Program-made: the position numbers and the translations under genes
The notes under the pieces: generated by a model
Told to the model about the DNA's origin: nothing
Databases searched by the model: none
Seen by the model: only the letters and a program-made list of their open reading frames with translations
Shown here: positions 11,790-32,423 of the stretch, one piece after another
Layout: each line of letters opens with the position of its first letter
Position numbering within the stretch: the first letter of the stretch is position 1
From: Terracidiphilus sp.
GTDB taxonomy: Bacteria > Acidobacteriota > Terriglobia > Terriglobales > Acidobacteriaceae
Assembly (NCBI GenBank): GCA_049522255.1
Contig: JBEKOA010000001.1
Coordinates: 4,216 to 68,215, forward strand
Direction: 5' to 3'
DNA length: 64,000 bases

Positions 11790-12111
11790 CGTCATTTCCG
11801 CAGAGCGATTTGGTGGCAAATGTTGAGAGCCCTTGCACAGCTCAGCCTGCGTCGGCCCCATTGCATTGACGGAACCGACCACCAGCTTCACACTTTCCGG
11901 CAGATTCGTTGGCCGCGGTCTCGGTCTACCTGCACGCCTGCGCCTCGGTCAGCGAGGCCAGAACTTCCATAGGACGCTCCTGGGACTTCTGCAACTTCAT
12001 TCCTCCGGACTCAAGCCTGAAAGCGCTCACGCCCGATCAGCGATCGCTCAGCCGACCGCCAGAGTCCATGGCGGCCTGAAAGCAAAAGCTGTCCGAAGTA
12101 CCGGGACCTCC

Positions 12112-13395
12112 TCAATCTCCCGCTGATTCTGTGTCATATGCAAGAACAGCCTCAGGGGTCTTCCCTTGACGAGTATTGCGATAGCTGAAAACCTGAGCAC
12201 GGCTCAGGGCAGCGGCTGTCCAGGTGAACTTCCAGTGCACGCCAAACTCCAGCAGTAACGCTACGCTGCCGAGCATCAGTCCGGCAAAACACATCAGGCC
12301 GGTCCCATAGCTTCCGAAGATGTCCTTGAGAGCGCCAAGAGCCGACGGAAGAAAGAATCCTCCCAGGCCGCCCGCTGCGCCAACAATGCCGGTGATCAGT
12401 TCAATGTCTGCCGGGAATCGTTGCGGCGCCATCTGAAAGACAGCTCCATTGCCCATACCCAGCATCCCCATGGAGACAAAGAGCATGGGCACCACGACCA
12501 CAATGGGCGGAAGACCACTGACAACCATGAGACAAACTGATATGCAGGCAAAGAGCGCGAGAAGCAATCTGTAACCTCCAATTCTATCGGCAAGCCATCC
12601 TCCGACAGGGCGCAGAAAACTTCCAGAGAGAACAACGATCGTGGTGAAGTCACCTGCCTGCACCTTAGTCAGGTGGTACTGATCGTGAAAGAAGACTGAG
12701 AGAAAGCTTGCCAAGCCCACAAAACCGCCGAATGTGAGGCTATAGAGGAAGCAGAGCCGCCATGTATCGCCCTGCCCAAGCAGTTGTGCGTATTGTCCCA
12801 AGGTTTTTGGTTTTGATTTCGTCGGACTGTTTTTGGCCAGGATCGAAAAGGCTGCTAGCACGAGCAAAACTGGAAGCAGTGCCAGCCCGAAGACAAAATG
12901 CCAACCAAAATGCTGCGCCAGTCGCGGTCCAAAGAAAGTTGCCAGAAGCGTCCCCGAGTTGCCTGCGCCTGCGATGCCCATGGCCAGTCCCTGATGCTCG
13001 GCGGGATACCATCGGCCCGCAAGGGGAAGTGCGACGGCGAAGCTTGCGCCAGCAATGCCCAGCAAGAATCCAATTGCATAGAACTGCCATAGCGCAGTGG
13101 CATAGTGCCAGCCAAGTACGAGGGGAACCAGCGTAAGTGTGAGACCAGTGAGACCAGCACGGCGGCCGCCGATGCGGTCGGCGAGTAACCCAAGAATGGG
13201 CCGGAAAAAAGAACCGCCCAGCAGTGGAATGGCGGTAAGCAATCCCTTTTGAGTTGCGGTCAAATGCATTTGATCAGCAATGAAAGGGGTCATGGGTCCA
13301 AAGAGAACCCACACCATAAAGCTGACGTCGAAGTAGAGAAATGCGGAAACAAGCGTGGGCAAGTGGCCGCTGGAAGCGAAAGATTTCTTGTCCAT
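12112..13395 (-). CDS. narK: NarK/NRT2-family nitrate/nitrite MFS transporter
   Basis: GSFFRPILG, GIAGASFAV, GAGNSG, TFGGFVG, GSFLRPVGGWLADR, GMGNGAVFQ nitrate signatures. Confidence 0.9.
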   Translation of the reverse strand: MDKKSFASSGHLPTLVSAFLYFDVSFMVWVLFGPMTPFIADQMHLTATQKGLLTAIPLLGGSFFRPILGLLADRIGGRRAGLTGLTLTLVPLVLGWHYATALWQFYAIGFLLGIAGASFAVALPLAGRWYPAEHQGLAMGIAGAGNSGTLLATFFGPRLAQHFGWHFVFGLALLPVLLVLAAFSILAKNSPTKSKPKTLGQYAQLLGQGDTWRLCFLYSLTFGGFVGLASFLSVFFHDQYHLTKVQAGDFTTIVVLSGSFLRPVGGWLADRIGGYRLLLALFACISVCLMVVSGLPPIVVVVPMLFVSMGMLGMGNGAVFQMAPQRFPADIELITGIVGAAGGLGGFFLPSALGALKDIFGSYGTGLMCFAGLMLGSVALLLEFGVHWKFTWTAAALSRAQVFSYRNTRQGKTPEAVLAYDTESAGD

Positions 13396-13436
13396 GTGCG
13401 ATCCTCCTGGGGCATTGATTTTGCGAATGAACTAGG

Positions 13437-15650
13437 TTATGAAGTCGGCGCTGCTTTGATGGGAGTGCGTTCGACGCGCACTGCGCATTGCTTGAAGTTG
13501 GGTTCGCGCGAAATGGGATCGAACGCGCTTTGCGTAATCTGATTGGCGTTGCTCTCGACAAAGTGAAAAGGAAGAAAGACCTGTCCTGGAGCAACGATCT
13601 CGGTAATGCGCAACTCAACCTTGCTGACCCGGCCACGCGCAGAGAGCACATCCACGCGATCGTGGGGACGCAAGCCCAGACGCTTCGCGTCCACCGGATT
13701 CATCTCCAGCCATGCGCGCGGAGAAAGGCGCTGCAAAATGTCGATGCCTCCGGTCTTGGTGCGGGTATGCCAGTGTTCTACGGTGCGCCCGGTATTGAGC
13801 ACAAAGGGATATTCTTTGTTGGGTTGCTCTGGAAAAGGAGCCCAGACGGTGGGAATCAGCCTGGCGCGTCCGTCTTCGGTCTGATACTGGCCATCGGTGT
13901 ATAGTCGCCGCGGCACAGTCGGGTCCAAAAAGGCTCCTTGCGGGTAGGGCCACTGGATTCCACCGTTGGACTCGATGGCATCGTAAGTCATGCCGGAGTA
14001 GTCGCAGAGCCTTCCTGCCGAGACGCGGCGCCACTCTTCAAATGCGTCGGTAGGCGTATTCCAGCCGGGGAATAGCTCTTCGCGGCAACCCAATCGTTCG
14101 GCGACAGCAAGAAAGATTTCGAAGTCGCTGCGTGCCTCGGCGGGTGGAGCGACAGCGGCATTGGCTTTGCTGGCGCGGCGTTCTGAGTTGGTGTAGGTCC
14201 CTTCTTTTTCTCCCCAAATGGCAGCAGGCAATACAAGATTGGCTAACTCGGTGGTGGGGGTTGGATGAAATCCATCCTGCACCACAAGAAAGTCCAGATT
14301 ACTCAGCGCATGTTTAAGTACATCGATATTTGGAAAGGAGACCAGGGGATTGGTGCCAATGATCCATAGCGCGCGAATCCTTCCCGCGACAGCAGCTTCG
14401 ATAATGTCAGGATAAGCAAGGCCACGTTGGGTGGGAATGCGCTCGATGGGAATGTTCCATAGGCGAGCCAGTTCTTTGCGGTCCACTTCAGATTCAAATT
14501 TCCGATACCCTGGGAGACCCGAAGCAAAGCCAGCCTCACGAGTGCCCATGGCGTTGCATTGTCCAGTGATGGAGAAAGGCGAAGCCCCGGCGCGCCCGAT
14601 GTTACCAGTAATCAGGGCAAGGTTGTTGATGGCATTAACGGTCTCGGTGCCCTTGGTGCTGTGATTCACCCCCATCGTCCATCCGATGAATGCAGCCTTG
14701 GCATTGCCGTAAAGTAGTGCCGTCCTATGAATCAGTTCCGGCGTGAGACCTGTGATCTTGGCTGCATGCTCCAGCGTGCAGGATTCGAGTGACGCGCGCA
14801 ATTCTTCAAATCCCGTAGTGTAATGCTCGACATATTGCTTGTCATAGAGATCCTCGTTGATGATGATGCGTAGCATGGCATTGATAAGTGCGAGGTCCGA
14901 TCGCGGCTTCAGGGGGAGATATACATCGGCCATCATCGCCGTTTTGGTAACGCGCGGATCGGCCACTATCATCGTTTTGCCGCGATTGCCTTCCAGGCGC
15001 GTACAGAGAATCGGATGATTCTCCGCAACATTGGCTCCGATGAGCAGAATGACATCCGCGGTCTCCAGATCGGCATAGGCGCCGGGCGGTCCATCGCTTC
15101 CAAAAGAACGCTTGTAGCCGGAGACTGCGGTGGACATACAAAGCGTGGTGTTACCGTCATAGTTGCGCGTGCCCAATCCCAGTTGCACCAGCTTGCCCAG
15201 CGCATAGAACTCTTCCGTAAGCAACTGGCCGGTACTGATGACGCCAACCGAATCAGGGCCATATTTGATTTGCGCGGCGCGAAAGCGCTCCACCATAGTT
15301 TCCACCGCTTCGTCCCAACCAACGCGTACTAGCTCATTGTTTTTTCGCAGCAACGGATACCTGGCGCGATCCTTAGCCTCGATTGTGTAGTGCTCTGACA
15401 AGCCTTTTGGACAAAGCTTGCCAAGGTTGACCGGGTGATCGCGATCCCCGCGAACGCTGACAACTTTTCCCTTGCTTACACCTAACTCCATTCCGCAACC
15501 TACAGAGCAGTATCCGCAGGTGCTTTTCACCCACGTTTCCGCATGTTTGCGGGTCGAGGTGAAGCCGAGCACCGGGTCAATCCCGTAACTGTATTTAGCG
15601 GAGAGGTTGTCCAGCCCGCTTTTGCGTAATACCCAGTCCAGCACACTCAT
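13437..15650 (-). CDS. nasA: Cytoplasmic Mo-bisPGD nitrate reductase catalytic subunit (NasA/NarB-type)
   Basis: CGYCSVGC..LCPKG [4Fe-4S]; NTTLCM Mo-Cys; GQCNAMGTRE; EKEGTYTNSERR; ATGA overlap with the upstream gene fixes the start at 15650; no Tat motif. Confidence 0.88.
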   Translation of the reverse strand: MSVLDWVLRKSGLDNLSAKYSYGIDPVLGFTSTRKHAETWVKSTCGYCSVGCGMELGVSKGKVVSVRGDRDHPVNLGKLCPKGLSEHYTIEAKDRARYPLLRKNNELVRVGWDEAVETMVERFRAAQIKYGPDSVGVISTGQLLTEEFYALGKLVQLGLGTRNYDGNTTLCMSTAVSGYKRSFGSDGPPGAYADLETADVILLIGANVAENHPILCTRLEGNRGKTMIVADPRVTKTAMMADVYLPLKPRSDLALINAMLRIIINEDLYDKQYVEHYTTGFEELRASLESCTLEHAAKITGLTPELIHRTALLYGNAKAAFIGWTMGVNHSTKGTETVNAINNLALITGNIGRAGASPFSITGQCNAMGTREAGFASGLPGYRKFESEVDRKELARLWNIPIERIPTQRGLAYPDIIEAAVAGRIRALWIIGTNPLVSFPNIDVLKHALSNLDFLVVQDGFHPTPTTELANLVLPAAIWGEKEGTYTNSERRASKANAAVAPPAEARSDFEIFLAVAERLGCREELFPGWNTPTDAFEEWRRVSAGRLCDYSGMTYDAIESNGGIQWPYPQGAFLDPTVPRRLYTDGQYQTEDGRARLIPTVWAPFPEQPNKEYPFVLNTGRTVEHWHTRTKTGGIDILQRLSPRAWLEMNPVDAKRLGLRPHDRVDVLSARGRVSKVELRITEIVAPGQVFLPFHFVESNANQITQSAFDPISREPNFKQCAVRVERTPIKAAPTS

Positions 15651-17284
15651 GCAGACTCCATGGAGAGATATTCGGTTGCAATGTTGCTGGGAACGACACT
15701 GACAAAGAAGAGATAGCGGCTCACGAATTCGCCGGCAATCAGAAGAAGTGCAACGGGAACAGCCATCCACCGAGTCTGCGCAAAAGGTACAAGCAACAGG
15801 CCCGCGCTGAGCAAAAGGAGGCGCAGCATCAAGAGATTCGAGAGTACGGTGAAAAGCAGGATGAAGACTCCGCGACGCTCATGCGCAGAGGAGCGGGCCA
15901 GCCAAACCATTTTCATGCCGGCGGCAAGAATCGTCGCGATACCGGTAACGATTACCGCCCGTTGCGTAAACGTGGCTGTTCCACTGAGAATGTTGGCGCC
16001 CGCAGAGCCGAGCAGCATGGCGGTCAGAAAGAACTCCACAATAGTGAATGGGGAGTTCCACCCTGGGCGTCCCGGCGCCAAATACAATCGTGCGCTGCAG
16101 CCGACGCCGGCTATGCCAAAGATGACAGTCAATCCACCTAAGACTGTAACTGTATGAGCAGGCAGCATCGCATTGATCTCGCGAAGAAGCAGAACGAGAG
16201 AGGTAGTGAGTTTTTGGAAGACGGCCATGTGTCTAAGATCGAAGCCACCGGGCAAGGTGATCCACAGCGCCGCGGAATACGCAGCCGCGGCGTTGGCAAA
16301 GAGAGTAAACATCAAGACTTCCCGGCTGAGCCATGATCGACGCCACATCTTCAAAGCGCGCACGGCATGAATCGGTCGCCCCAGATGCAGCGTTGAGGCT
16401 CCGAGCGCTACGGTTGCGATCATCAGCGCAACGAGTGCAGCCACGCAGTGCAGGTGAGCACCAAAGATCTGCATCAGCCATATGGAAGAAAATGCGCCTA
16501 CCGAAAGCTGTGTCAGAACGGTCATTACCACCAGCGGCCAATGAGCATGCTCGGGACGAAGACGGTTGAGATCCACTTTGGCGGAATCGCGTGGCATGCG
16601 ATTGGGCAGGGTGATACGCGTTGTGGATAGACTGTCGTCTGCCGAGGGCATCCCTGGCGCGTTTGCGTCGGTGCGATATTGTTCACGCCATTCCGCAGTG
16701 CGCACAATTTCAATGCGAATGGCGCCTTCCGGACAGGCAGAGACGCAGGCTGGATTTTGCCCCTCGGTCAGACGCCCGTAGCACATATCGCATTTACCGA
16801 CGACGCCGCGCTCCGGGTTGTACTGGGGCACGCCGTAAGAACAGTTCCAGGTGCAATATTGGCAACCAATGCAGATATCCGCGTTGTGGCGCACGATTCC
16901 AGTGGGGCCGTCTTTTGAGTAAGCGTCGACCGGGCAGCCCGTCATGCAAGTCGGCTCCAGACAGTGATTGCAGCCGATAGAGAGATAGTTGCGCTGGGTA
17001 TCCGGATAAGTGCCGCCTTCGATTTCGCCGACCCGCCGCCACAGAATGTCGGCAGGATTTCCGTTCTGCTCGTTGCAAGCCACCACGCAACACTTGCAGC
17101 CGATGCACTTGGTCATGTCGAAATGAAAACGATATTGTTCGCCCGGTCCCGGTGGAGGCGGAAGAGGAACATCGACTCCGCTGCCGCACAACTGAACCAA
17201 CCCCTGCCCGGAATTTTGGGCAGAGGTCGTCAGGTTGAAGGCATCGTCGCCGGCCTTGACCCGTTCGAGTAAGGGAAGTTCCAT
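15647..17284 (-). CDS. Fused 4x[4Fe-4S] DmsB/NrfC-type subunit and DmsC/YnfH membrane anchor
   Basis: CIGCKCCVVAC, CNHC..TC..GCP, CIGCQYCTWNC, CDMC..PACVSACP, then ~8 TM with HWPLV.MTVLTQ and S.LHLGRP..A.RA...WRRSWLSRE; GGAG RBS before ATG 17284. Confidence 0.85.
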   Translation of the reverse strand: MELPLLERVKAGDDAFNLTTSAQNSGQGLVQLCGSGVDVPLPPPPGPGEQYRFHFDMTKCIGCKCCVVACNEQNGNPADILWRRVGEIEGGTYPDTQRNYLSIGCNHCLEPTCMTGCPVDAYSKDGPTGIVRHNADICIGCQYCTWNCSYGVPQYNPERGVVGKCDMCYGRLTEGQNPACVSACPEGAIRIEIVRTAEWREQYRTDANAPGMPSADDSLSTTRITLPNRMPRDSAKVDLNRLRPEHAHWPLVVMTVLTQLSVGAFSSIWLMQIFGAHLHCVAALVALMIATVALGASTLHLGRPIHAVRALKMWRRSWLSREVLMFTLFANAAAAYSAALWITLPGGFDLRHMAVFQKLTTSLVLLLREINAMLPAHTVTVLGGLTVIFGIAGVGCSARLYLAPGRPGWNSPFTIVEFFLTAMLLGSAGANILSGTATFTQRAVIVTGIATILAAGMKMVWLARSSAHERRGVFILLFTVLSNLLMLRLLLLSAGLLLVPFAQTRWMAVPVALLLIAGEFVSRYLFFVSVVPSNIATEYLSMESA

Positions 17285-17931
17285 CGATAGCTCCATCGTG
17301 TGCGGCACGCGCAATGTGCGAAGAGGACTGGTGTCAGGGACACGCCGCCCTCGACCGATGACGGTTGCTCTCAGACGTTCGAGCCCCTGTAATTTGTTGG
17401 TGGTTTGGCGATCAGGCCAGGCTCTTCGCGGAGCCAACTGGAAATCACTTCAGCTTGGGGAAGCATCCGGCACACTGGGCCAGACCTTCGCGGTGTGAGC
17501 TCTCTCAAAAGAGTCTCATTCCGCGTGGAGTGATTGCGTTGAGCATAGCGTCAAATAAGAATCAATGCAAGTAGATTCTGGTTTTGAACAATCTGTGCAG
17601 AAATCTCATTCAATATGCGTGGAAAAGCACCTTCCACTCTTGTATTCCCGATTGGATGCGTGTTAAAGCGAAGTCGGAGAGTTTCCCCATTCACCTTGCC
17701 CCGGGCATTCTTCGGGAGGTGATGATTGGGTCATTGCTTCTCTTCAGGCTTCTATCGAGTGTGACCAACGGACTATGTTTTTGCCGATCTTTAATCATGC
17801 GATACTGGAGTTGAAGATTGCTTCGAGTCCGCTGGATTCATGCGGAAATGGAGCGACGCAACTTTGCGCTGCCCGCTCTTCGTATCTTCCATCTGTGTCC
17901 ATTTCTTCTAACCCAGCACACGGAGAGACCC

Positions 17932-19611: not shown

Positions 19612-19622
19612 TCGCAACTTGC

Positions 19623-19718
19623 TTGTGATCTCTATCGAGTTGCGCTAGTCTAACCCTAAGAGTGAGACAAGGCTGTCTCCTCGGGTTCTCTCTTCCCCGC
19701 ACCACGCCGTGCCTGGGG
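19623..19718 (+). promoter_or_regulatory. Putative sigma70 promoter and candidate ANTAR-type tandem hairpins in the nirA leader
   Basis: TTGTGA-N17-TAGTCT (19623-19651); GAGAC-AAGGCT-GTCTC (19664-19679); GCAC-CACGCC-GTGC (19699-19712). Confidence 0.5.
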
Positions 19719-19886
19719 CCTTCAGACCACAATCCCTTTACTCCATGCTCCGTGATGAGCCTTGAATTCTCCGCATTGTTTGCGGCATTCATCGGGTCTC
19801 AACGCCGCTTTGCGCACGCGCACACAAGCGCTTTCAACGGGCAGTCCGGTCCTCCTCATGGATGGACTACTGGAAGGAGTGATGGC

Positions 19887-23500: not shown

Positions 23501-24004
23501 ATGAGAGTCTGCAAGCTATACATTTCGCCAGGGCATAATTTCTTTGGCCACCACGAACAGCCGCCCGGAGAGTATCCGCTGATCGAGTGTGCGGAGCTCC
23601 GTTGTATGGCCGGTCGCGGAGTTGAAGGAGACCGCTTCTTCGACTACAAGGACAACTACAAGGGACAGATCACTTTCTTCTCTTCCGAGGTCTTCGAGGA
23701 ACTCTGTAATCTTCTCGGCGTGCACGACAAGTCTCCGGGGGCAACCCGTCGCAACGTCATCACCGCTGGAGTGGATCTGAATTCCCTGATCGAAAGAGAG
23801 TTTGACGTACAAGGCGTGCGTTTTTCAGGTGTAGCTGAGTGCAGCCCCTGTTATTGGATGGACAAAGCCATCGCACCCGGCGCCGAGGAATTCCTGAAAG
23901 GCCGGGGTGGGTTGCGCGCGCGGATTCTAACGGATGGGGTCCTCGTAGTCGAAGATGAAATTCTCTATCGCCATTCTGCAGATTCTCAGTGTCCCCTACT
24001 TTAA
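23501..24004 (+). CDS. MOSC-domain molybdoprotein (YiiM/mARC-like)
   Basis: GRGVEGDRF, QITFF, TRRNVI..GVDLN, CSPC, GRGGLRARIL..G. Confidence 0.85.
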   Translation: MRVCKLYISPGHNFFGHHEQPPGEYPLIECAELRCMAGRGVEGDRFFDYKDNYKGQITFFSSEVFEELCNLLGVHDKSPGATRRNVITAGVDLNSLIEREFDVQGVRFSGVAECSPCYWMDKAIAPGAEEFLKGRGGLRARILTDGVLVVEDEILYRHSADSQCPLL

Positions 24005-24196
24005 GTTGTTGCATGCGGCTCGAAGCTGCGGAGATTCCTTAACCTCGAAAGCTAATAAGGGACAAGTAACGCCCATCTGCTATCTACAGATCACTTGCGT
24101 TGGCCACTGGTAATGGAACTGCCGGTGAACAGAATGAAGGCACAAGACCCCATGTCGCGGCTTAGCCCCACCCTGGAGTCTGGCGGAGATCAATGC

Positions 24197-24212
24197 AGGG
24201 ACTTTTGTCACT
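24197..24212. promoter_or_regulatory. Copy 1 of a 16-bp CRP/FNR-like operator (AGGGAC-TTTT-GTCACT)
   Basis: Near-identical to 27193 and 31566; centred ~-42 from a TAGACT -10 candidate at 24235. Confidence 0.6.
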
Positions 24213-25616: not shown

Positions 25617-26547
25617 ACTGCTCCTTCGCATTCAGAAGATCATTCTCGACCCGCGCCTGCTGTGGGTGCACGATCTCACGCTTTGGGTCGAGCTGTTTGT
25701 CACCGTGAATCTGGCGATTCTTGCCGCGGACATTTACCTCGCACATTCGGTGAATCATTTTCAAAAGGCGGCGGAGTATATCCCGCTCTACTTTTCAATG
25801 GGCTCGCCGGTAGTGCTCGCGGCCGTGATCGCCCTGCGCTGGATAGGTCGATTTGAAGCTCCTTGGCGCGACGTAGGCTACCTGGTCGGTGGTCTTTCAG
25901 TGCTGGTCGGGTTAGGCGGAGTGCTTTACCACTTGGAGAGCCGGTTCTTTCTGGATCGCACGTTGAAGAGCCTCACCTACGCAGCGCCTTTTGCCGCGCC
26001 GCTCGCGTATACCGGCCTCGGCTTTCTCCTCTTGATGAATCGCATGGTGGCTGCGCGAAGTGCCGAGTGGGCACGTTGGGTGATCCTCCTGGCGCTGGGC
26101 GGCTTCTTCGGGAACTTCGTTCTGTCGTTGACCGACCACGCATCCAATGGCTTCTTTGCAAGAACCGAATGGATTCCCGTTGTTTCTTCGGCATTTGCTA
26201 CCGGATTCCTGATCGTCCTCCTCATGGCGGTGGTGACGCGCCGATTTCTCGACGCTTGCCTTGTGGTAATGTTCGCGCAGGCCTTCGTCGGTGTTTTGGG
26301 ATTCTGGTTTCATCTGCGCGCGAATCTGTTCGAGCCCGGCAGCAGCGTCTTCGACAAACTCGTCAATGGCGCTCCCCCAATGGCTCCGCTGCTATTTCCG
26401 AATCTCGTTGGACTGGCTCTGATCGGACTGTGGGCTTTGATTCCTCATTTACCGGAAGCGCCATCAAGCCGTTCCTGGCTGGGTGCAACTTACGCGTGGG
26501 TGCATCCCGGAGTGGAAACGGGTGCGTCAGATGGGCACGTTCGCTGA
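25603..26547 (+). CDS. Integral membrane protein with internal duplication and 4 conserved His; probable HAO partner
   Basis: Overlaps the hao stop; two halves each with H..N.F...E.IP, VG..G..(Y/F)HL and AP..AP. Confidence 0.75.
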   Translation: MLTSKLLLRIQKIILDPRLLWVHDLTLWVELFVTVNLAILAADIYLAHSVNHFQKAAEYIPLYFSMGSPVVLAAVIALRWIGRFEAPWRDVGYLVGGLSVLVGLGGVLYHLESRFFLDRTLKSLTYAAPFAAPLAYTGLGFLLLMNRMVAARSAEWARWVILLALGGFFGNFVLSLTDHASNGFFARTEWIPVVSSAFATGFLIVLLMAVVTRRFLDACLVVMFAQAFVGVLGFWFHLRANLFEPGSSVFDKLVNGAPPMAPLLFPNLVGLALIGLWALIPHLPEAPSSRSWLGATYAWVHPGVETGASDGHVR

Positions 26548-26631: not shown

Positions 26632-27174
26632 GTGAGAACTAACTTGGCGGTACAAATAGGCGCAAAACCGGACAGCGGATTCGACGATCCAATTGGGATG
26701 CTAGTGGACTGCCACCGCAGGGTCGAAGGCTTTCTTGGGATTTTATGCGCTGTAGTTGAGCGCGCCAAAAACAGAGAATTGACCGATGAAGAGAAGAGCG
26801 CGGTTCAATCGGCTCTTCAGTATTTCCAACTGGGTGGGCAGCGGCATACTGCCGATGAGGAGGAGTCTCTGTTTCCTCGGTTGCGGGGAAAACCAAATCC
26901 AGCAATCGACGCGATTGCCGGGCTGCAATCGGACCATCGCCGCGCCAATCGGTTGCATGATTCGATCGAGAGGATATATCTGACCTGGATCTCCAGCGGA
27001 AGACTGACACCCGAAGAGACAGAACGACTACTGTCTCAGACAGGTGAACTCAAAGAACTCTACTCAGCCCATATATTGATGGAGGAAACCGTCGTGTTCC
27101 CCTACGCAGCGAAGGTATTGGACGGCGAGGTTATTGCCAAAATTGCCGCCGAATTCAAGATGCGGAGAAAATGA
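26632..27174 (+). CDS. Hemerythrin-like (HHE) di-iron protein
   Basis: H..VE, HTADEEESLFP, DHRR, HILMEETVVFP. Confidence 0.85.
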   Translation: MRTNLAVQIGAKPDSGFDDPIGMLVDCHRRVEGFLGILCAVVERAKNRELTDEEKSAVQSALQYFQLGGQRHTADEEESLFPRLRGKPNPAIDAIAGLQSDHRRANRLHDSIERIYLTWISSGRLTPEETERLLSQTGELKELYSAHILMEETVVFPYAAKVLDGEVIAKIAAEFKMRRK

Positions 27175-27192: not shown

Positions 27193-27208
27193 AGTGACCA
27201 AAGTCGCT
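27193..27208. promoter_or_regulatory. Copy 2 of the 16-bp operator (AGTGAC-CAAA-GTCGCT)
   Basis: Centred -41.5 from a TACGCT -10 candidate at 27230, upstream of ric. Confidence 0.65.
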
Positions 27209-27254
27209 GTGGTTCATAATCCGAAGTCCTACGCTGTGGTTAAAGGAGATCGAA

Positions 27255-27974
27255 ATGACCCCAAACCCACAGACCGTTCGCGAAATCGCCCTGGAACAGC
27301 CATCTTCAATAAGAGTTTTTGAGAGATTTGGAATCGACTATTGCTGCGGGGGCCGCAAGCCTCTCAGCGAAGCGTGTATGGCCGGAAATCTTGAGGTAGA
27401 CATTGTGATCGCCGCGTTGGAAGCGGCTGCAAAGGCGCCGGATTCAGAAGTTGAAAACTGGTCCGGTAAGTCGTTGGAGAGCCTGAGCGCGCATATCGTC
27501 ACCACGCACCATGCCTACGTAAAGCGAGAACTGCCTAGACTCGCCGTGCTCGCCGAGAAGGTTGTGAATCGTCATGGCGCAACAAAGACGGAATTGCCGG
27601 GAATCGCTGGAACACTAGCGCGGCTCGACGGGGAACTCACGCAGCATCTGGCGAAAGAAGAAGCCGTCCTGTTTCCCTACATTGCGGATCTTGAACGGGC
27701 CGTTTCGAATCATGCCGCGAAGCCACGCAGTTGCTTCGGGACGGTTGCCAACCCGATCGCGATGATGACGCAGGAACACGATGCTGCCGGAACGCTCCTC
27801 GCTGAAATTCGTCGTCTCAGCCACAATTTCACCACGCCTGAGGATGCCTGCCCTACCTTTCATGCCTTCTACGGCGGGCTAAAGGAATTTGAACAGGACC
27901 TGCACCAGCACATTCATTTGGAGAACAACATACTGTTTCCGCGTGCAATAGAGATGGAGAAAGCCGCATCCTAA
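27255..27974 (+). CDS. ric: Iron-sulfur cluster repair di-iron protein (RIC/YtfE/ScdA)
   Basis: GIDYCCGG, HH.YVKRELP, HLAKEEAVLFP, EHD..G, HIHLENNILFP. Confidence 0.93.
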   Translation: MTPNPQTVREIALEQPSSIRVFERFGIDYCCGGRKPLSEACMAGNLEVDIVIAALEAAAKAPDSEVENWSGKSLESLSAHIVTTHHAYVKRELPRLAVLAEKVVNRHGATKTELPGIAGTLARLDGELTQHLAKEEAVLFPYIADLERAVSNHAAKPRSCFGTVANPIAMMTQEHDAAGTLLAEIRRLSHNFTTPEDACPTFHAFYGGLKEFEQDLHQHIHLENNILFPRAIEMEKAAS

Positions 27975-28007
27975 TCGATACTGGCCCAACTCAATAGCCA
28001 GGAAGAG

Positions 28008-29807
28008 TTACTCGTCGACTGGGGCTGTCTTCCTCGCCCCGCGGAACGGTGGACGAACGTGCAGGACGCGTTCCCGGCTGCGCTCCTCAGAGAGGTTGCG
28101 GGCGCGCGCACTCAGCATGTCATCGAGCGAAATCATGCCTAAGATTCTGCGTTCTTCGCCGCTATCCACCACCGGCATCCTCGTGAAACCCGTTTCTGCC
28201 ATGCGATAAACTAGAGTTCGCAGCGACTCATCTGCAACCGCCACGACGGGGTCGCGGCGTGCAATGTCGGACAGCAAGGCGCGATCGCTACTGCACTTGG
28301 CCAAATCCTTGCGGGTGATTACACCCCTCAGGCGGTGATTTGCATCGATCACGGGATAAAGGTGCTGCCCGCGAGAAGGATGGCCATTCTTCAACATTCT
28401 CAGTGCATCGTCGAGCGTGCCGCTCCCCTCGAACGCGAGTATTTGTGTACGCATCACTTCGCTAGCGAATAGCACCTCCAGCGGATCCACGCTGTACTCG
28501 CGGCTGAGATGAAAGCCGCGTCGAGCCACCTTCTCAGTCAGGATCGAACGCTTCAACACCAACACCGTGAACGTGTGCGCAATGACGGCGGCTACGATGA
28601 GTGGCAGGATCATGTTCACGTCGTGCGTCAGCTCGATTGCGAATACGATTCCGGTGAATGGCGAACGCATGGTGCCGGCAAGGATCGCTCCCATGCTGAC
28701 AAGTGGCCAGAAGCCGGGTCCGGCCGCGGGAAGAAACAAAGCTTCAAGGCCGCCCAATGCGCCACCCATCATCAGCAACGGGGCAAGAACCCCGCCCGAT
28801 GTTCCCGATCCCAACGATACCGCCCAGATAGTGGACTTCACCAGCAGGATTCCCAGCAGCAGGCCAATGGCGCCGTTGCCCTCAAGGAGAGTGGCAATTG
28901 TGTCGTAACCAACGCCGAGGGCCTGCGGAAAGATCATGCCTCCCAGCCCGATCACCAGGCCTCCGATAGCCGGCCACCACATCCAGTGGATCGGCAGCTT
29001 TGCGAAGGCATCCTCGGCGGCGTAGACGGCGCCGGTAAGCAATGCAGATAACGCACCCGCGAGCAGTCCGCAGACGACGCAGCCCATGAGCCCGCCAGGA
29101 CCAATGAATACAGAATGCGCCGGTGTAGGAAAGAGCGGGCCGAGACCGATCAGGTATCGCCGTGCTGCGCATGCAGTTGCACTGGCCAGCGCCACCGGAA
29201 TCAGACTGCGCGGCTTCCACTCGAAGAGCAGCAACTCGACCGCAAGAAGAATCGCCGAGAGTGGCGCGGCAAATGTGGCCGACATGCCGGCCGCCGCTCC
29301 GGCCACAAGCAAGGTCTTTCGTTCAGCGCTGGTGAGATGAAAAAACTGTGCGATCATCGACCCGAACGCGCCGCCCGTCATGATGATGGGGCCCTCCGCG
29401 CCGAATGGCCCGCCGGTTCCTATTGAAAGCGCTGCCGAGAGCGGCTTCAGAATTGCCAGCTTCGGATGCACCCTGCTGCCGCCGATCAAGATCGATTCGA
29501 TGGCCTCCGGTATGCCATGCCCGCGAATCCGTTCTGATCCGTAGCGTGCCATCAGGCCAATGATCAACCCGCCGGCTACTGGCACCAGAACAGCCCACCA
29601 GCCAAGGTGATTTTCCGCGGGTGAGACCAAGCTGCTTCCGATTCGCTGATAGTAGAAGAGATTGGTGAAGAACCCGATCAGCCGTAGCAGTGCAAGCGCA
29701 ACGTAGGCGCCGATGAGACCGATCACCATCGCCAGGCCGGCGATTGGCAGCACGCGACTCGTAGTTGTGAAATCGCCCAGCTTCTTAAGTTCCGCACAGA
29801 GTTTCAT
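28008..29807 (-). CDS. ClC-family anion channel/antiporter with a CBS pair
   Basis: GHGIP, GAEGP, GSGTSGGVLAP, FAIELT; C-terminal CBS (HLYPVID, RMPVVD). Confidence 0.9.
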   Translation of the reverse strand: MKLCAELKKLGDFTTTSRVLPIAGLAMVIGLIGAYVALALLRLIGFFTNLFYYQRIGSSLVSPAENHLGWWAVLVPVAGGLIIGLMARYGSERIRGHGIPEAIESILIGGSRVHPKLAILKPLSAALSIGTGGPFGAEGPIIMTGGAFGSMIAQFFHLTSAERKTLLVAGAAAGMSATFAAPLSAILLAVELLLFEWKPRSLIPVALASATACAARRYLIGLGPLFPTPAHSVFIGPGGLMGCVVCGLLAGALSALLTGAVYAAEDAFAKLPIHWMWWPAIGGLVIGLGGMIFPQALGVGYDTIATLLEGNGAIGLLLGILLVKSTIWAVSLGSGTSGGVLAPLLMMGGALGGLEALFLPAAGPGFWPLVSMGAILAGTMRSPFTGIVFAIELTHDVNMILPLIVAAVIAHTFTVLVLKRSILTEKVARRGFHLSREYSVDPLEVLFASEVMRTQILAFEGSGTLDDALRMLKNGHPSRGQHLYPVIDANHRLRGVITRKDLAKCSSDRALLSDIARRDPVVAVADESLRTLVYRMAETGFTRMPVVDSGEERRILGMISLDDMLSARARNLSEERSRERVLHVRPPFRGARKTAPVDE

Positions 29808-30229
29808 CCGCCATCCAGTACGCCGCTTAGCGTTTTCATCAGTTCAGGCCCTTTGGCCCGCAATTCTTCATGGTGCGCGAGAGACAACCTTTGCAACAAT
29901 GACTCTCCCTCACTCGTGAGCCGAACAAGCACTTCACGATGATCTGTTTCTGCCGCCACCCGCTCTACCATCCCGTGTTCCGTCATCCTGTTCACCAGTT
30001 CAACAGTGCTGTGATGGCGAATCAGCATCCGCGTCGCCAGCTCGCCGATCGTAGGCTTCACGCCATCCGGCAAGCCCTTGATGGCCAGCAAAAGCTGATG
30101 CTGTTGCGGCTCGATCCCATGAGTGCGTGCCTGATCTTCGCTGAACCGCAAAAACCGGCGGATCTGGTAACGAAATTCGGCCAGGTCTTGAAATTCGCGA
30201 GTCGTGAGCCGAGCTCTTCTTGCTGTCAT
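29804..30229 (-). CDS. MarR-family regulator
   Basis: IEPQQHQLLLAI, IGELA, HHSTVELVNRM..G.V.R...DHREVLVRLT.EG; overlaps the clc start. Confidence 0.88.
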   Translation of the reverse strand: MTARRARLTTREFQDLAEFRYQIRRFLRFSEDQARTHGIEPQQHQLLLAIKGLPDGVKPTIGELATRMLIRHHSTVELVNRMTEHGMVERVAAETDHREVLVRLTSEGESLLQRLSLAHHEELRAKGPELMKTLSGVLDGG

Positions 30230-30264
30230 CTATATATCGTATCACGATATATCGCCACACTCAA
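30230..30264 (-). promoter_or_regulatory. sigma70 promoter (TTGAGT-N17-TACGAT) overlapping a 9-3-9 inverted repeat; probably leaderless
   Basis: ATATATCGT-ATC-ACGATATAT at 30232-30252; -10 ends 6 nt before the ATG. Confidence 0.7.
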
Positions 30265-30419: not shown

Positions 30420-31529
30420 TCACATGCCGGGATGGGACAATTCGTTCGCGTGTGGCACGAGACGCAAATAGACTGAGCGCGGGATATTTGTCTGCCAGTG
30501 ATTTGTGGCTCGGGCAAATAGCATCAGTCCGAAAAAGATATACGCGAGAACGGCGGTGACGGCCAGAGGTCCAAGTGTGCGGCGAAACCATCGATGCGAG
30601 GCTGCCGCGCCGCGTCTCGGTGCAAGTGCGAATTGAAGCGCATCCTGCCGTGGGCAAACTGCCACGCATGCCAGGCACGCGTTGCACTCTGCCGACCGGA
30701 TCTGTGTCAGGCGGTCGACCGGCAGGCTTGCCGGACAAGCTCGCGCGCACTTTCCGCAATCGAGGCAGTGCTCTGCGTCTCGGCGAATCTTGACAGGACT
30801 AAGAAGCGAAACGAGCCCCATCAGCGCGCCGTAAGGACAGAGGTAGCGGCACCAGAAGTTCTTGAGCAGCAGGGAGCCGAAAACCAGAATGGCAAGGACG
30901 ATGGCGGCGGTCTGCCCCATATCGCGAAAGAAGTTCAACATCTTCACGTCTGCCACCAGGCCATAAGGAGTGTTCATGAAGCTCTCCAATGCCTCGCCGG
31001 ACATAGCGCCAATGACGAGAACGAAGAATCCGAGCAACAGGTATTTCAGCCCGCGTAAAGGGCTGTCGGCCCAACGGGGAAGTCGCAGATTGCGCCCGAA
31101 GATCCTTCGCCCTATCTTCCACAGATACTCTGAGAGTGTTCCCACTGGGCAAAGCCAGGAGCAGAAGGCCTTCTTCAGCAAAAGACTCATCAGCAGAAAG
31201 GCAATCAACAAAAACATGGCCGCAGGGTGAATGGACGGCACGCGCCCGGTAAATAGAAGGTACTTGAGATTCATCAGACCGGCGATGGGCAGCCAGCCCT
31301 CGGCCCCGGGAGGGCGAGGCACGTAAAATCCCTCACCTCCGTGTTCGAAATAGCGGACCCACAGAATGAACTGAACCCCAAGCCAGCCGTTCAAAGCCAC
31401 AAACAGCAACTGCACAAGGTGCCTGATCCGTTGGGAGTTGTCCGCCACGGGCCGGCGAATTAGCGGCTTCTTCTCGTTGAGGCGAGAAACTCCTTTTGCT
31501 GACTGGGTCTCCATGGCCGATTCTTCCAT
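30420..31529 (-). CDS. YccM/NapH-like membrane polyferredoxin
   Basis: CSWLCP, CRYLCP, CLDCGKCARACP, CNACLACVAVCP; TM helices. Confidence 0.85.
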   Translation of the reverse strand: MEESAMETQSAKGVSRLNEKKPLIRRPVADNSQRIRHLVQLLFVALNGWLGVQFILWVRYFEHGGEGFYVPRPPGAEGWLPIAGLMNLKYLLFTGRVPSIHPAAMFLLIAFLLMSLLLKKAFCSWLCPVGTLSEYLWKIGRRIFGRNLRLPRWADSPLRGLKYLLLGFFVLVIGAMSGEALESFMNTPYGLVADVKMLNFFRDMGQTAAIVLAILVFGSLLLKNFWCRYLCPYGALMGLVSLLSPVKIRRDAEHCLDCGKCARACPASLPVDRLTQIRSAECNACLACVAVCPRQDALQFALAPRRGAAASHRWFRRTLGPLAVTAVLAYIFFGLMLFARATNHWQTNIPRSVYLRLVPHANELSHPGM

Positions 31530-31565
31530 CTCGACCCAAGACTATAGCAAGAGAACAAGACGAAC

Positions 31566-31581
31566 AGCGACTTTTGTCACA
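31566..31581. promoter_or_regulatory. Copy 3 of the 16-bp operator (minus strand TGTGAC-AAAA-GTCGCT)
   Basis: Centred ~-40 from an extended -10 TGcTATAGT (31541-31549, minus). Confidence 0.65.
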
Positions 31582-31803: not shown

Positions 31804-31845
31804 CTCGGATGGCTGATCGATCGGATAGTTATCCGACAGGTCTGC

Positions 31846-32402
31846 TTACTTCACGGTGATCGTAAAAGTTTGCGTGCTCTTGCATCCGCTGGTGTTAGTG
31901 TAGGTGGCCACATACAAGTCTGCGCCTACGGTCAACGGAATGCTGTTGATTTGACGCAAGGTCGACGTGTACTTGTTAGGGCCGGTCCAGCTCCATGATC
32001 CGCCGCTGGATGGCTGCGGGCCGAGGTCCACAACCGTTGAGGTGGAACTTGCCGTTGCTCTGGATTCCTCCGTCCAGGTTGCGCCCCCATTGATTGAGAT
32101 GTACGGAGTGATAGTGGTCGGCGTGCAGTTGACCGTCAAGGCAATCGTCGTGCTGGCGGTCAGGCTGGCGGAGGTTCCTTTGACGGTGATCGTAGCCGAG
32201 CCTACCGGGGCCGAACTGCTTGGAGTGAGGGTGAGCATGCTGCTTCCGTTGGTTGGGTTAGAGGCAAAGGTTGCAGCCACGCCGCTGGGCAGGCCGGAGG
32301 CGGCAAGCGTCACGCTGCCGGTGAATCCGTTCTGCCCTGTCACAGTGACGGTAGATTTTCCTGAAGTACCCTGGGCTATGCTCAGCGATGCAGGCGAAGC
32401 GC
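31846..32402 (-). pseudogene. 3' fragment of a secreted Ser/Thr-rich Ig-like repeat protein
   Basis: SPASLSIAQG..TVTVTGQNGFTGSVTL.ASGLPSGV.ATF plus C-terminal LGPQP..GGSWSWTGP domain; no signal peptide or credible start. Confidence 0.65.
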
Positions 32403-32423
32403 CGCCCCTGTTATTCTTGAAGC

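Follow-up and report, generated by a model that had tools for sequence, protein, structure and literature searches.

Gene content of the stretch

The window analysed here is a stretch of 64,000 nt from Terracidiphilus sp. (GCA_049522255.1, contig JBEKOA010000001.1, positions 4,216-68,215, forward strand), which an initial annotation had read as carrying an island-borne nitrate-to-ammonium and N-oxide defence module. The full set of genes that it listed was found between 12.1 and 32.5 kb by Pfam and NCBIfam matches (Table 1), which bears out the gene content and supports the functional reading as conversion of nitrate to ammonium together with handling of nitrite, NO, and hydroxylamine. Enzyme roles, the link to quinol, and the signals sensed are assigned from family membership and gene order.

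Table 1. Genes, RNA elements, and candidate regulatory sites, with positions in the window
Feature	Position	Strand	Family or basis
Decayed tRNA 3'-end-like fragment, older scar	11486-11520	+	TTTGCCG-type repeats before it
tRNA-Val(CAC), 3' ~49 nt	11725-11773	+	anticodon arm, T arm, acceptor 3' strand, CCA; 5' half missing
NarK-like MFS nitrate/nitrite transporter	12112-13395	-	PF07690, 5e-45
NasA-like cytoplasmic Mo-bisMGD (molybdopterin) nitrate reductase	13437-15650	-	PF04879/PF00384/PF01568
DmsB-like 4Fe-4S (four-cluster ferredoxin) and DmsC-like 8-TM anchor fusion	15647-17296	-	PF13247 + PF04976
HemD-like/GAF/ANTAR regulator	17932-19611	+	PF02602, PF01590, PF03861
Dual hexaloop hairpin RNA element in nirA leader, candidate ANTAR target	19654-19726	+	covariation, model R1
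NirA sirohaem/4Fe-4S nitrite reductase	19887-21665	+	NF007126 'NirA family'; PF01077, PF03460
CysJ-like NADPH diflavin reductase (flavodoxin/FAD/NAD)	21668-23440	+	NF004859; PF00258, PF00667, PF00175
Small MOSC-domain (molybdenum cofactor) protein	23501-24004	+	PF03473
Box 1, GTGACAAAAGTCCCTG	24196-24211	-	~170 nt upstream of HAO-like gene
Membrane-anchored periplasmic octahaem HAO-family cytochrome c	24381-25616	+	PF13447
8-TM partner of HAO-like cytochrome	25603-26547	+	no family
Hemerythrin-domain protein	26632-27174	+	PF01814
Box 2, GTGACCAAAGTCGCTG	27194-27209	+	~50 nt upstream of RIC
RIC/ScdA/YtfE di-iron Fe-S repair protein	27255-27974	+	PF04405 + PF01814
ClC channel/antiporter, two CBS domains	28008-29807	-	PF00654, PF00571
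MarR-family regulator	29804-30229	-	PF12802
Perfect palindrome, ATATATCGT-N3-ACGATATAT	about 30233-30253		immediately upstream of marR
NapH/YccM-like membrane polyferredoxin	30420-31529	-	PF12801, TIGR02163
Box 3, GTGACAAAAGTCGCTG	31565-31580	-	~45 nt upstream of yccM-like gene
Probable 5'-truncated secreted Ig-like-repeat protein remnant, marking a rearrangement breakpoint	31846-32493	-	no family

The assimilation genes begin with narK, the final gene of a fesDmsC-nasA-narK operon that is kept in relatives. The NasA-like protein scores ~530 bits against the NasA and NasC models, under both cut-offs; its N-terminus carries no RR motif or twin-arginine signal, and it contains LCMSTAVSGY, which we take to be a Nap/Nas-like motif. 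The start of nasA overlaps by 4 nt the stop of the upstream gene, which encodes a fusion matching DmsB (TIGR02951, 6e-46) with 8 TM helices, and this order recurs in 31 of 80 related loci. Because the loop charges of the fusion are asymmetric (K+R 12 vs 4), its FeS domain is placed in the cytoplasm, and we propose that the fusion both anchors NasA to the membrane and passes electrons to it. Nitrate would be taken up by NarK and reduced by cytoplasmic NasA, translationally coupled to this fusion and probably drawing electrons from the quinol pool. The resulting nitrite would be converted to ammonium by NirA (808 bits; NF007126 cut-off, 523), with electrons likely passing from NADPH through the CysJ-like reductase (466 bits; NF004859 cut-off, 432), whose gene has nirA as its neighbour in the majority of the 80 related loci. 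The MOSC protein shares 60-72% identity with its counterparts from nas clusters of Verrucomicrobiota, and in the closest relatives its gene is followed by moaA-moaC; it may be a molybdoenzyme that clears N-hydroxylated by-products, or may otherwise serve nitrate reductase.

Beyond these genes, the HAO-like cytochrome has 8 CxxCH motifs and a single N-terminal TM helix, and its best solved relative is the octahaem protein of Ignicoccus (4qo5), with HAOs next. It has 4045 homologues at E<=1e-10; where the names of the matches listed include a taxon, it is Acidobacteriota, Acidobacteriaceae, Terracidiphilus, or Acidisarcina. The gene for the 8-TM partner overlaps hao by 14 nt, and its product matches nothing in Pfam or NCBIfam, even at E<=5. 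Alignment and topology reveal four invariant His residues in H-x4-5-F(F) motifs in this family, which comprises 655 representatives at 50% clustering. In relatives, the partner gene invariably follows hao, and the two form a fixed unit that lies in unrelated housekeeping contexts.

Control elements and expression

The HemD-GAF-ANTAR protein has 2694 homologues at E<=1e-20; the three-domain architecture is common to every one of the 120 matches listed, and their taxon-bearing names are Acidobacteriota/Terracidiphilus under the source label 'uroporphyrinogen-III synthase'. Its gene adjoins nirA in 9 acidobacterial loci. The dual hairpin is kept across 6 aligned nirA leaders, with 91.7% of cells paired as compared to 33-50% in slid controls and compensatory changes at 7 pairs, and the MFE fold of the leader gives both hairpins; no terminator partner was identified for them. 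Model R1 recovers the hairpin pair in three loci outside its training set (E-values of about 1.1e-08 to 1.6e-08 in L008, 1.4e-09 in L100, and 1.1e-06 in L102), invariably between the regulator (or upstream region) and nirA. The region upstream of fesDmsC-nasA-narK has no R1-type pair, and therefore the ANTAR control earlier proposed for assimilation, although supported by the conserved hairpins, is a candidate for the nirA operon only. The regulator probably binds the double hairpin in response to a signal, allowing transcription or translation.

A different element precedes the N-oxide genes. Within the 64 kb there are exactly three copies of the 16-nt box GTGACMAAAGTCSCTG, one each before the genes for the HAO-like cytochrome, RIC, and the NapH/YccM-like protein, against an expectation of 0.12-0.52, and every copy lies in a promoter region. 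Among relatives, a matching box stands ~90 nt upstream of hao in L091 and an orthologous one upstream of yccM in L100, where the yccM orthologue (77% nt identity) is placed after the nas-moa cluster; in L102/L103, the box precedes a CRP/FNR-family gene itself. The recognition helix of the relatives' CRP/FNR regulator adjoining the cluster reads R-E-x-x-x-R, which fits the rule that R180/E181 contact G3/A6 of a GTGA-type box (PMC1274295) and gives it the look of the cognate regulator. The pairing of regulator and box rests on relatives because the CRP/FNR gene is absent from the 64-kb window. The boxes here, those in relatives, and this regulator agree with the CRP/FNR-type control of N-oxide genes put forward in the initial annotation. 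Hao and its partner, RIC, and the YccM-like polyferredoxin would form an N-oxide regulon whose box is recognised by a factor from the CRP/FNR family, HcpR/DNR/NssR in type and encoded beyond the window, which would activate them when nitrite or NO builds up. MarR and ClC, preceded by the palindrome, are likely a separate, self-regulated pair.

RNA evidence comes from assembled contigs of one metatranscriptome sample (X30) with low coverage of the organism. In it, RIC was the strongest gene of the 52 kb examined (contig depth 55.8), yccM reached 13-20, hao was barely detectable, and there was no nas/nir RNA.

Ends of the stretch and its arrangement in relatives

At the left end, the older scar forms a direct repeat (D3) with 11738-11760, 78% identical. 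ARAGORN is silent on the tRNA-Val fragment and calls tRNA-Val(cac) after addition of the 5' 26 nt from loose ends of metagenome contigs; read depth over the fragment is 500-870x vs ~20-30x at its neighbours because the sequence is common to real tRNA genes. The 64-kb window holds no intact tRNA by ARAGORN, no other match to the att core anywhere, including the right end, and no integrase or recombinase that we could find. Where integrases target tRNA genes, the orientation of an attR-type scar tells on which side the element lay. Both fragments read 5' to 3' on the + strand after non-tRNA repeat-rich DNA, which places the element to the left and the nas genes on the chromosomal side. The att scars noted earlier, at 11.5-11.8 kb, are real remnants of tRNA-Val 3' ends, but the element that they indicate would lie on the opposite side.

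At the right end, the earlier call of a truncated gene is plausible: its product has no signal peptide and begins within an Ig-like repeat, residue 31 aligning to residue 307 of a 468-aa homologue, and the 5' end of the gene overlaps a divergent lipoprotein gene. The rise in GC proposed as a boundary is gradual and starts within the module, with no break (0.597 at 28-30 kb, 0.567 at 30-32 kb, and 0.612 at 32-34 kb; window range, 0.53-0.65). Tetranucleotide composition of the module correlates with that of the rest of the window at 0.950, as compared to 0.934-0.962 for other 20.6-kb slices, so that by both measures the module resembles its surroundings. About 20 peat metagenome runs each contain both flanks together with the nas and N-oxide parts between them; the left junction is identical in six same-species contigs from different samples, the right junction is spanned by contigs, and none skips the module. 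No strain differing in its presence was seen among these runs and contigs, and we found no relative near enough to reveal an empty or ancestral site. Occurrence of the sequence in peat and wetland metagenomes supports the acidic habitat suggested earlier.

The nas/nir core and regulator are kept in loci of 9 acidobacterial species. Throughout Acidobacteriaceae the core is retained, and its structural genes also turn up in other phyla, Verrucomicrobiota among them. In the closest relatives, whose regulator is 86-87% identical, the core lies between mobA/moeA and moaA-D-E-moeB-moaC, with yccM or the CRP/FNR gene directly after nas-moa. HAO, RIC, and ClC are absent from these nas-moa loci, and Moco genes stand where the Terracidiphilus window has the scars and the hao-RIC-ClC block.

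Origin and function of the neighbourhood

In our reading, the stretch is ordinary chromosome assembled piecemeal. Probably, it belongs to a vertically inherited peat Acidobacteriaceae chromosome in which independent conserved units lie side by side as two regulons and one self-contained pair. The present order would have arisen through several rearrangements, at about 11.8, 24.0, and 32.4 kb and with inversion of yccM, rather than by insertion of a single island. Rearrangement at both ends is real, as the tRNA-Val fragments on the left and the truncated gene on the right attest; these ends, and the Moco genes that relatives carry in place of the scars and the hao-RIC-ClC block, mean that the 24.0-30.3 kb segment may have been transferred within the family. 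That the whole 20.6 kb was acquired horizontally at tRNA-Val, with assimilation and defence as a package, is highly improbable. The tRNA fragments and repeat-rich arms at 11.3-11.8 kb, the truncated gene at 32.4 kb, and the lack of synteny of both flanks with genus-level relatives would suit such an island, but the window lacks the integrase, intact tRNA, and second att copy expected of one, the scars face the wrong way, composition and strain distribution show no difference, the nas/nir core is a family feature found in many genomes, and the parts are placed separately in relatives. Gene content, scars, and the plausible truncation stand from the initial observations without the GC break, and gene functions, both types of control, and habitat stand from its interpretation without the island or the single module. 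Part of what it had named as evidence against itself was observed, namely sub-modules unlinked elsewhere and no co-expression in X30, the sole available metatranscriptome.

The same unlinking and expression data, together with control elements that differ between sub-modules and the operator that MarR-ClC has to itself, raise the question of whether adjacency means anything, the assimilation cluster and stress genes having become chance neighbours after rearrangement with no integrated system. We give this only a modest chance, since linkage of the nas cluster to members of the box regulon recurs, rearranged, in the closest relatives, as boxed yccM or a boxed CRP/FNR gene after nas-moa, and since five N-oxide-related units within 8 kb beside the window's only nitrite-producing pathway exceed, by informal reckoning, random expectation. 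It is rather unlikely that the HAO-family cytochrome and its partner carry out respiratory, energy-conserving ammonification of nitrite or hydroxylamine (DNRA-like), rather than detoxification, in a neighbourhood for anaerobic respiration. A role as quinol dehydrogenase is conceivable for the partner, given its four conserved His; conservation of the pair in Acidobacteriaceae is strong (77-88% identity for the HAO-like protein among the 120 matches listed), and in vitro reduction of nitrite and hydroxylamine is on record for HAO homologues free of the Tyr cross-link (PMC8042395). Against this, hao RNA is scarce where RIC and yccM are high, the neighbourhood has no respiratory nitrate reductase, the cross-link Tyr could not be placed because the C-terminal region does not align, and the partner has no recognisable quinol site, its single-sequence structure model being unusable (pLDDT 51). 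On our preferred reading of conserved units side by side, the company of nitrate assimilation and NO defence has a precedent in Bradyrhizobium, where such packaging is already known. Less usual here are the HemD-GAF-ANTAR regulator, which goes under the annotation uroporphyrinogen synthase, the coupling of NasA to an FeS-DmsC membrane fusion, and an octahaem cytochrome whose 8-TM, four-His partner carries no annotation.

Gene content and arrangement in relatives

Pfam and NCBIfam together confirmed every gene that the initial annotation had named between 11.8 and 32.4 kb (table). NirA and the CysJ-like protein pass curated NCBIfam cut-offs, and NasA, the ferredoxin and the cytochrome score below every equivalog cut-off. 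The block is flanked on the left by housekeeping genes and an ABC-3 transporter and on the right by a group-4-hydrogenase/Mrp-like operon. G+C across the window runs from 0.53 to 0.65. Near word-for-word copies of the sequence are present in ~20 peat, wetland and soil metagenomes, and the nearest genome records are Acidobacteriaceae/Terracidiphilus MAGs.

Table. Genes of the nitrogen block, with window coordinates and strand
Feature	Position	Strand
NarK-like transporter	12112-13395	minus
NasA-like molybdoenzyme	13437-15650	minus
DmsB-like ferredoxin fused to DmsC-like anchor	15647-17296	minus
HemD/GAF/ANTAR protein	17932-19611	plus
NirA	19887-21665	plus
CysJ-like diflavin reductase	21668-23440	plus
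Small MOSC protein	23501-24004	plus
Octahaem HAO-family cytochrome	24381-25616	plus
8-TM protein, no family	25603-26547	plus
Hemerythrin	26632-27174	plus
RIC	27255-27974	plus
ClC	28008-29807	minus
MarR	29804-30229	minus
NapH/YccM-like protein	30420-31529	minus
Gene remnant	31846-32493	minus

The proposal that these genes form one whole module is not supported by comparison with relatives. Among 80 loci collected via the CysJ-like protein, the HemD-GAF-ANTAR regulator adjoins nirA-cysJ in nine acidobacterial loci, mostly with fesDmsC-nasA-narK alongside, where fesDmsC encodes the ferredoxin-anchor fusion. The fusion gene itself is present in 31 of the 80, from Acidobacteriota, Verrucomicrobiota and other phyla, and lies immediately upstream of nasA in 30 of them, the other being at a contig end; the MOSC gene is found in 16. 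HAO, its 8-TM partner, RIC, ClC and YccM are absent from all 80. The hao gene is always followed by the 8-TM gene in three lineages, with an overlap of 14 to 17 nt (14 nt in the window), and the surroundings of the pair are unrelated between lineages, following secG in two of the three.

In the closest relatives, whose regulator is 86-87% identical, the order is a mobA-like gene, moeA, narK-nasA-fesDmsC, an outer-membrane channel gene, regulator-nirA-cysJ-MOSC and moaA-moaD-moaE-moeB-moaC, followed by either a yccM orthologue or a CRP/FNR-family gene. In the window the nas core has molybdenum cofactor genes on neither side, and narK has no moeA remnant to its left; the hao-to-marR segment occupies the position of the relatives' moaA-moaC, and yccM is inverted. 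Because its units are differently placed in relatives, the gene order indicates that the window arrangement is a lineage-specific mosaic. Outer-membrane channel genes (porin-like or Phenol_MetA_deg-like) are inserted in the cluster of several relatives (L001, 5223-7704; L100, L102, 8909-9789), between fesDmsC and the regulator in L100 and L102, and in L001, which also has a formate/nitrite-transporter-like gene, between the regulator and the nirA leader.

We offer one joint reading of the locus, which we hold to be possible but somewhat doubtful. Acidobacteriaceae, and for the structural genes many Verrucomicrobiota too, would use an uncharacterised route of nitrate assimilation in which a Nas subunit is tied to the quinol pool by a cytoplasm-facing FeS-DmsC fusion and switched by a riboregulator composed of an NnaR-type HemD domain, GAF and ANTAR. 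Separately, a family-wide HAO-like cytochrome and a new 8-TM four-histidine protein would constitute a quinol-linked periplasmic reductase of nitrite, NO or hydroxylamine under an NO-type CRP/FNR switch. In acidic peat and forest soils, where Acidobacteriaceae rank among the most abundant bacteria, chemically unstable nitrite is a source of NO and N2O emission. If our inferences hold, these organisms assimilate nitrate with a membrane-tethered enzyme used by no model organism, monitor nitrogen status through a regulator uniformly mislabelled in databases as an enzyme of haem biosynthesis, and hold a dedicated regulon, at least partly expressed in situ, against damage by nitrite, NO and hydroxylamine; metagenomic scoring of nitrate use and N-oxide turnover in peat would then change. 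The value of the locus lies in its parts (the regulator, the membrane-tethered NasA and the HAO partner) and not in the claimed 20-kb island, and it would offer as concrete targets one RNA element, one DNA box and two unannotated membrane partners.

Borders of the block

The initial annotation regarded the block as island-borne, bounded by att scars on the left and by a truncated gene and an apparent G+C rise on the right. The left scars are real: positions 11725-11773 of the plus strand correspond to the anticodon arm, T arm and acceptor 3′ strand of a tRNA-Val(CAC) whose 5′ half is absent, and ARAGORN, which finds no intact tRNA in the window, calls tRNA-Val once the 5′ 26 nt are prefixed from metagenome loose ends. 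A decayed second tRNA fragment lies 250 nt upstream, on the same side of the block, and in front of each copy are short repeats like those of integrase arm sites. An orphan 3′ copy left by a tRNA-targeting integrase sits at the element's distal end, downstream as the tRNA is read. By its orientation, the orphan here therefore puts the lost element left of 11.7 kb, with the nitrate genes on the side of the chromosome. On the right, a truncated gene is plausible: the minus-strand remnant ORF has no signal peptide, starts inside an Ig-like repeat corresponding to residue ~307 of a 468-aa homologue, and overlaps a divergent lipoprotein gene, making a breakpoint at this border plausible as well. 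The G+C rise does not serve as a boundary, being gradual and already beginning inside the module.

No integrase or recombinase family was detected in window ORFs of at least 150 aa or in the small ORFs at 10.4-11.2 kb, and the att core occurs a single time, with no second copy anywhere in the window even at three mismatches. The expected compositional break is also missing; in tetranucleotide usage 11.8-32.4 kb correlates with the remainder of the window at 0.950, where other 20.6-kb slices give 0.934-0.962, and the G+C of the block (0.55-0.60) is inside the window range. In metagenomes, the left flank, nas part, N-oxide part and right flank come from the same runs with similar word shares, and contigs from four runs contain no joint that skips the block. 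The identical left junction is present in six contigs from different samples, and single contigs span 30.0-33.2 kb. Exact RIC and ABC-3 permease proteins matched same-species contigs only, with the arrangement unchanged, and within the species the block is always together with both flanks. Two sets of apparent alternative junctions were rejected: loose ends at 11.72-11.79 kb traced to genuine tRNA-Val genes and related element arms elsewhere, and those at 32.28-32.33 kb to Ig-like repeats of other genes. At the level of the genus, flank synteny is wholly lost. Relatives reached via CysJ, HAO, NuoB and the regulator share operons but not flanks with the window, and no empty or ancestral site is therefore readable.

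The locus shares with tRNA-integrated genomic islands a tRNA 3′ fragment with repeat-rich arms and a gene remnant at the other proposed border, but it differs in having no integrase, intact tRNA or matching far repeat, in its native composition and in being fixed in the population. Nothing marks the block as foreign or variable, and it is not a member of this class, three of whose four defining features were looked for and not found. The arms at 11330-11790 hold TTTGCCG and TTTGGTAGCAA repeats, and the same peat metagenomes contain related arms in several different surroundings; their recurrence suggests a family of tRNA-Val-targeting elements active in the peat community. The interval between the ABC transporter and the tRNA scar (10694-11182) carries an acidic 81-aa ORF and a 64-aa DUF6582 ORF, both small and conserved, which might be all that is left of the lost element. 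To the right, the NuoB/NuoCD/NuoH/Mrp-like (group-4 hydrogenase-like) operon at 33058-40625 is kept as an operon in Acidobacteriaceae (L095-L099), with an ArsR-type gene in front in relatives and neighbors that change with every lineage.

Nitrate assimilation and a candidate ANTAR switch

Domains, motifs and gene context identify NasA as a cytoplasmic Mo-bisMGD enzyme of the Nap/Nas clade: it has no TAT motif, is encoded with nirA and narK, and shows a C-M rather than (U/C)-H active-site context, which we take to be the Nap/Nas type. Because it scores below the NasA and NasC equivalog cut-offs of NCBIfam, it is not an equivalog of the characterized enzymes. The fesDmsC and nasA genes overlap by 4 nt. 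The fusion has eight helices, with 12 lysines and arginines in the loops on the ferredoxin side versus 4 on the other, and its iron-sulfur domain thus probably faces the cytoplasm. From family knowledge, the most likely course is that nitrate would be imported by NarK and reduced in the cytoplasm by NasA, which the fusion would probably link to quinols, giving a Nar-like function from Nas and Dms parts. Like NarGHI, which is quinol-dependent, the system would reduce nitrate on the cytoplasmic face in a membrane-tied manner, although its catalytic subunit is Nas/Nap-like and not NarG. It shares a DmsB-type four-cluster subunit and a DmsC-type anchor with DmsABC-type enzymes, but here the two are fused and, by the positive-inside rule, predicted to face the cytoplasm. 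Our literature search found no paper on DmsBC-linked Nas enzymes.

The CysJ-like reductase sits in the operon divergent from nasA, and electrons would pass from NADPH through this protein to NirA, as in sulfite reductase. E. coli YcbX reduces N-hydroxylated compounds with CysJ; the small MOSC protein may likewise reduce N-hydroxylated by-products with the CysJ-like reductase, or otherwise serve the molybdoenzyme. NasN, a diflavin-linked nitrate reductase (cited in PMC7816997), is a precedent for diflavin modules in nitrate assimilation. NasN and the window system share a CysJ-like diflavin module tied to nitrate assimilation, but the window reductase is a separate protein next to NirA. Copies of MOSC from verrucomicrobial nas clusters (L038, L042, L045, L064 and others) are 60-72% identical to the window protein, and the NirA, CysJ and NasA proteins beside those copies are only 36-49% identical to theirs in the window, a difference that points to unusually strong constraint on MOSC or to its separate transfer. 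A search by sequence found no solved structure related to MOSC.

Control of assimilation by an ANTAR protein, as the initial annotation had it, is supported by an ANTAR domain and a conserved dual hairpin in the nirA leader, but no second hairpin pair was found in 11-33 kb with the filters off. The ANTAR domain (PF03861, 2.3e-16) occupies residues 517-569, at the C terminus of the long ORF. The HemD part matches NF005568 (5.5e-34, 118 bits versus a cut-off of 273), which we take to be the NnaR family model, and all 120 homologues listed share the HemD-GAF-ANTAR domain set and are named "uroporphyrinogen-III synthase" by their sources. The 275-nt spacer between the regulator gene and nirA contains two small hairpins with six-base loops (19654-19726), which a thermodynamic fold recovers unaided and which align across six species. 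A covariance model built from these six matches three further loci, always in the nirA leader (L008, 1.6e-08; L100, 1.4e-09; L102, 1.1e-06). Across the resulting nine sequences, 91.7% of cells are paired versus 33-50% for slid partners, and seven pairs have changed on both sides, counts that lean towards structure since the alignment was fitted to the model. The ANTAR target rule asks each loop to have A in its first position (A1) and G in its fourth (G4) (PMC3369931). G4 is present in 8/9 first loops and 9/9 second loops; A1 is present in 4/9 first loops, including that of the window, and all nine second loops start with C. No terminator-like site was identified at 19.7-19.9 kb, and only weak U-rich tails follow hairpin 2 in some relatives; the terminator scan as a whole did not exceed chance expectation. 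The window has no Rfam match at gathering thresholds.

The regulator shares a C-terminal ANTAR domain with NasR, NasT, EutV and AmiR (Ramesh et al. 2012, PMC3369931), and its candidate target shares two small hairpins with six-base loops, G at position 4 and a location in a nitrite reductase operon leader. It differs in its input, which is HemD-like plus GAF rather than a NIT or receiver domain, and in its target, where loop 2 starts with C and not A and no overlapping intrinsic terminator was identified. The candidate switch fits the ANTAR paradigm only in part. With NnaR of mycobacteria and Streptomyces, which is needed for nitrate/nitrite assimilation, the regulator has in common a HemD-like domain joined to a regulatory output (PMC6277429); NnaR has a DNA-binding output and acts with GlnR, whereas the window protein has an RNA-binding ANTAR output and an intervening GAF domain. 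Because the HemD-like domain of NnaR is reported to be without uroporphyrinogen synthase activity in Streptomyces (PMC6277429), a sensory role for this domain in the window regulator is a reasonable inference by analogy. No paper on HemD-GAF-ANTAR proteins was found. The fesDmsC leader (17297-17560, minus) contains a conserved promoter-like stretch, CTTGCA ... TATGCT, and a pair of conserved hairpins, CYGGC-7 nt-GCCRG and GGCTC-CGCGAA-GAGCC, which are separated by 32 nt and each show one compensatory pair; these were rejected as an ANTAR site, their layout differing from that of the nirA-leader element and being insufficient for a call.

In Bradyrhizobium japonicum it is already established that nitrate assimilation and NO defence are packaged together and governed by an ANTAR regulator, with narK-bjgb-flp-nasC and nirA controlled by NasS-NasT (PMC4724949). 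That system (Cabrera et al. 2016, PMC4724949) and the window locus both combine assimilation and NO detoxification with an ANTAR antiterminator and a clustered flavoprotein donor. In B. japonicum the detoxifier is a single-domain haemoglobin within the same operon (PMC4724949), whereas the N-oxide genes of the window (hao, its partner, RIC and yccM-like) are separate units, associated with a CRP/FNR-type box and, in relatives, not linked to nas; a HemD-like/GAF fusion stands in the place of NasS as sensor, and the reductase partner is an FeS-DmsC membrane fusion. The predicted window system would work like that of B. japonicum in outline, with every component different and a second, separate switch added. 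An NtrY/NtrX-like pair of histidine kinase and sigma-54 activator, at 53781-57436 and 21 kb right of the module, may be relevant to nitrogen control.

The HAO-like cytochrome, its partner and the CRP/FNR-type box

The HAO-like protein has eight CxxCH motifs, matches PF13447 above cut-off (4.6e-24) and has 4045 homologues, of which the 120 listed are 77-88% identical to it. Its PDB matches are 4qo5, 1fgj and 4n4j, the nearest being 4qo5, the Ignicoccus octahaem protein IhOCC. The alignment to 1fgj stops at query residue 354 (chain residue 411), leaving the C-terminal cross-link tyrosine region of 1fgj unaligned, and the window protein is ~78 aa shorter there. HAO homologues without the tyrosine cross-link reduce nitrite, NO and hydroxylamine (PMC8042395). 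We propose that the cytochrome and its four-histidine partner would draw electrons from the membrane to reduce nitrite, NO or hydroxylamine in the periplasm, and that RIC would repair damaged iron centres. Eight CxxCH motifs, the PF13447 fold signature and a short C terminus are shared with epsilon-Hao, Kuenenia HAOr and IhOCC (PMC8042395; PDB 4qo5). The window protein differs from these in having an N-terminal membrane anchor, putative control through the CRP/FNR-type box, and an obligatory 8-TM four-histidine partner in place of a NapC/NrfH-type or dihaem cytochrome. We found no paper on acidobacterial HAO-like proteins.

The partner belongs to no Pfam or NCBIfam family, and its single-sequence structure model has a pLDDT of 51. 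The invariant histidines H48, H110, H179 and H237 each belong to an H-x4-5-F(F) motif, and the four motifs lie at matching ends of helices 1, 3, 5 and 7, an arrangement that resembles a four-fold internal repeat. A library of 1.84 billion proteins contains 655 representatives of the partner when clustered at 50%.

CRP/FNR-type control of the N-oxide genes, proposed by the initial annotation, is supported by three boxes, by the same box in relatives and by a matching recognition helix, but the window itself contains no regulator gene: the best tblastn E-value is 0.84 and the ORFs scanned have no cNMP_binding or HTH_Crp domain. Three copies of the 16-nt box GTGACMAAAGTCSCTG are present in the 64 kb, preceding the HAO-like gene by ~170 nt, RIC by ~50 nt and the yccM-like gene by ~45 nt, against an expectation of 0.12 (two mismatches) or 0.52 (looser core) in a post hoc test whose pattern was derived from the same three sites. 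Relatives carry the box too: it precedes hao in L091, where that gene has a different genomic location, yccM in L100, and, in L102 and L103, the CRP/FNR-family gene itself, which is next to the cluster. The L102/L103 regulator lacks an FNR-type N-terminal cysteine cluster. In the CRP/FNR family, R180/E181 correlates with G3/A6 of the box (PMC1274295), and the L103 recognition helix VRELISR, an R-E-x-x-x-R sequence, therefore fits the box, which has G3 and A6.

A common core links GTGACMAAAGTCSCTG to the HcpR box TTGACnnnnGTCAA. The predicted window regulon shares with HcpR, DNR, NnrR and NssR (Rodionov et al. 2005, PMC1274295) a 5-N4-5 palindrome (TTGACnnnnGTCAA for HcpR), nitrosative-stress genes, a regulator gene preceded by the box and an R180/E181 rule that fits G at position 3. 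It differs in its box, GTGAC-N4-GTCRC, in its members, which are the HAO-like cytochrome, RIC and a NapH/YccM-like protein and not hcp, nor or nir, and in a putative regulator encoded outside the window. The predicted regulon fits the CRP/FNR paradigm only in part, the regulator gene being absent from the locus.

RNA evidence comes from one metatranscriptome, the only one among the runs examined with a usable level of RNA from this organism. Assembled transcripts give a depth of 55.8 for RIC, 13-20 for yccM-like and 5.6 for MarR; the hemerythrin gene is partly covered, and HAO and its partner are below 1. No transcripts were seen on 12.1-24.0 kb or most flank genes, a zero that at this low coverage is no proof of silence. 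Coverage of RIC and yccM while nas/nir and most flanks are blank argues against contaminating DNA as the source of the signal and shows that expression of box-controlled genes in situ is independent of that of the assimilation genes, and the co-expression of sub-modules expected by the initial annotation is not seen in this data set. Directly upstream of the MarR gene, the perfect palindrome ATATATCGT-ATC-ACGATATAT (30233-30253) is likely the auto-operator of the MarR-ClC pair. The ClC protein carries the motif GHGIPE; that of the E. coli chloride/proton antiporter is GSGIPE. This replacement suggests that its ion selectivity may differ, nitrate or nitrite being conceivable as the ion.
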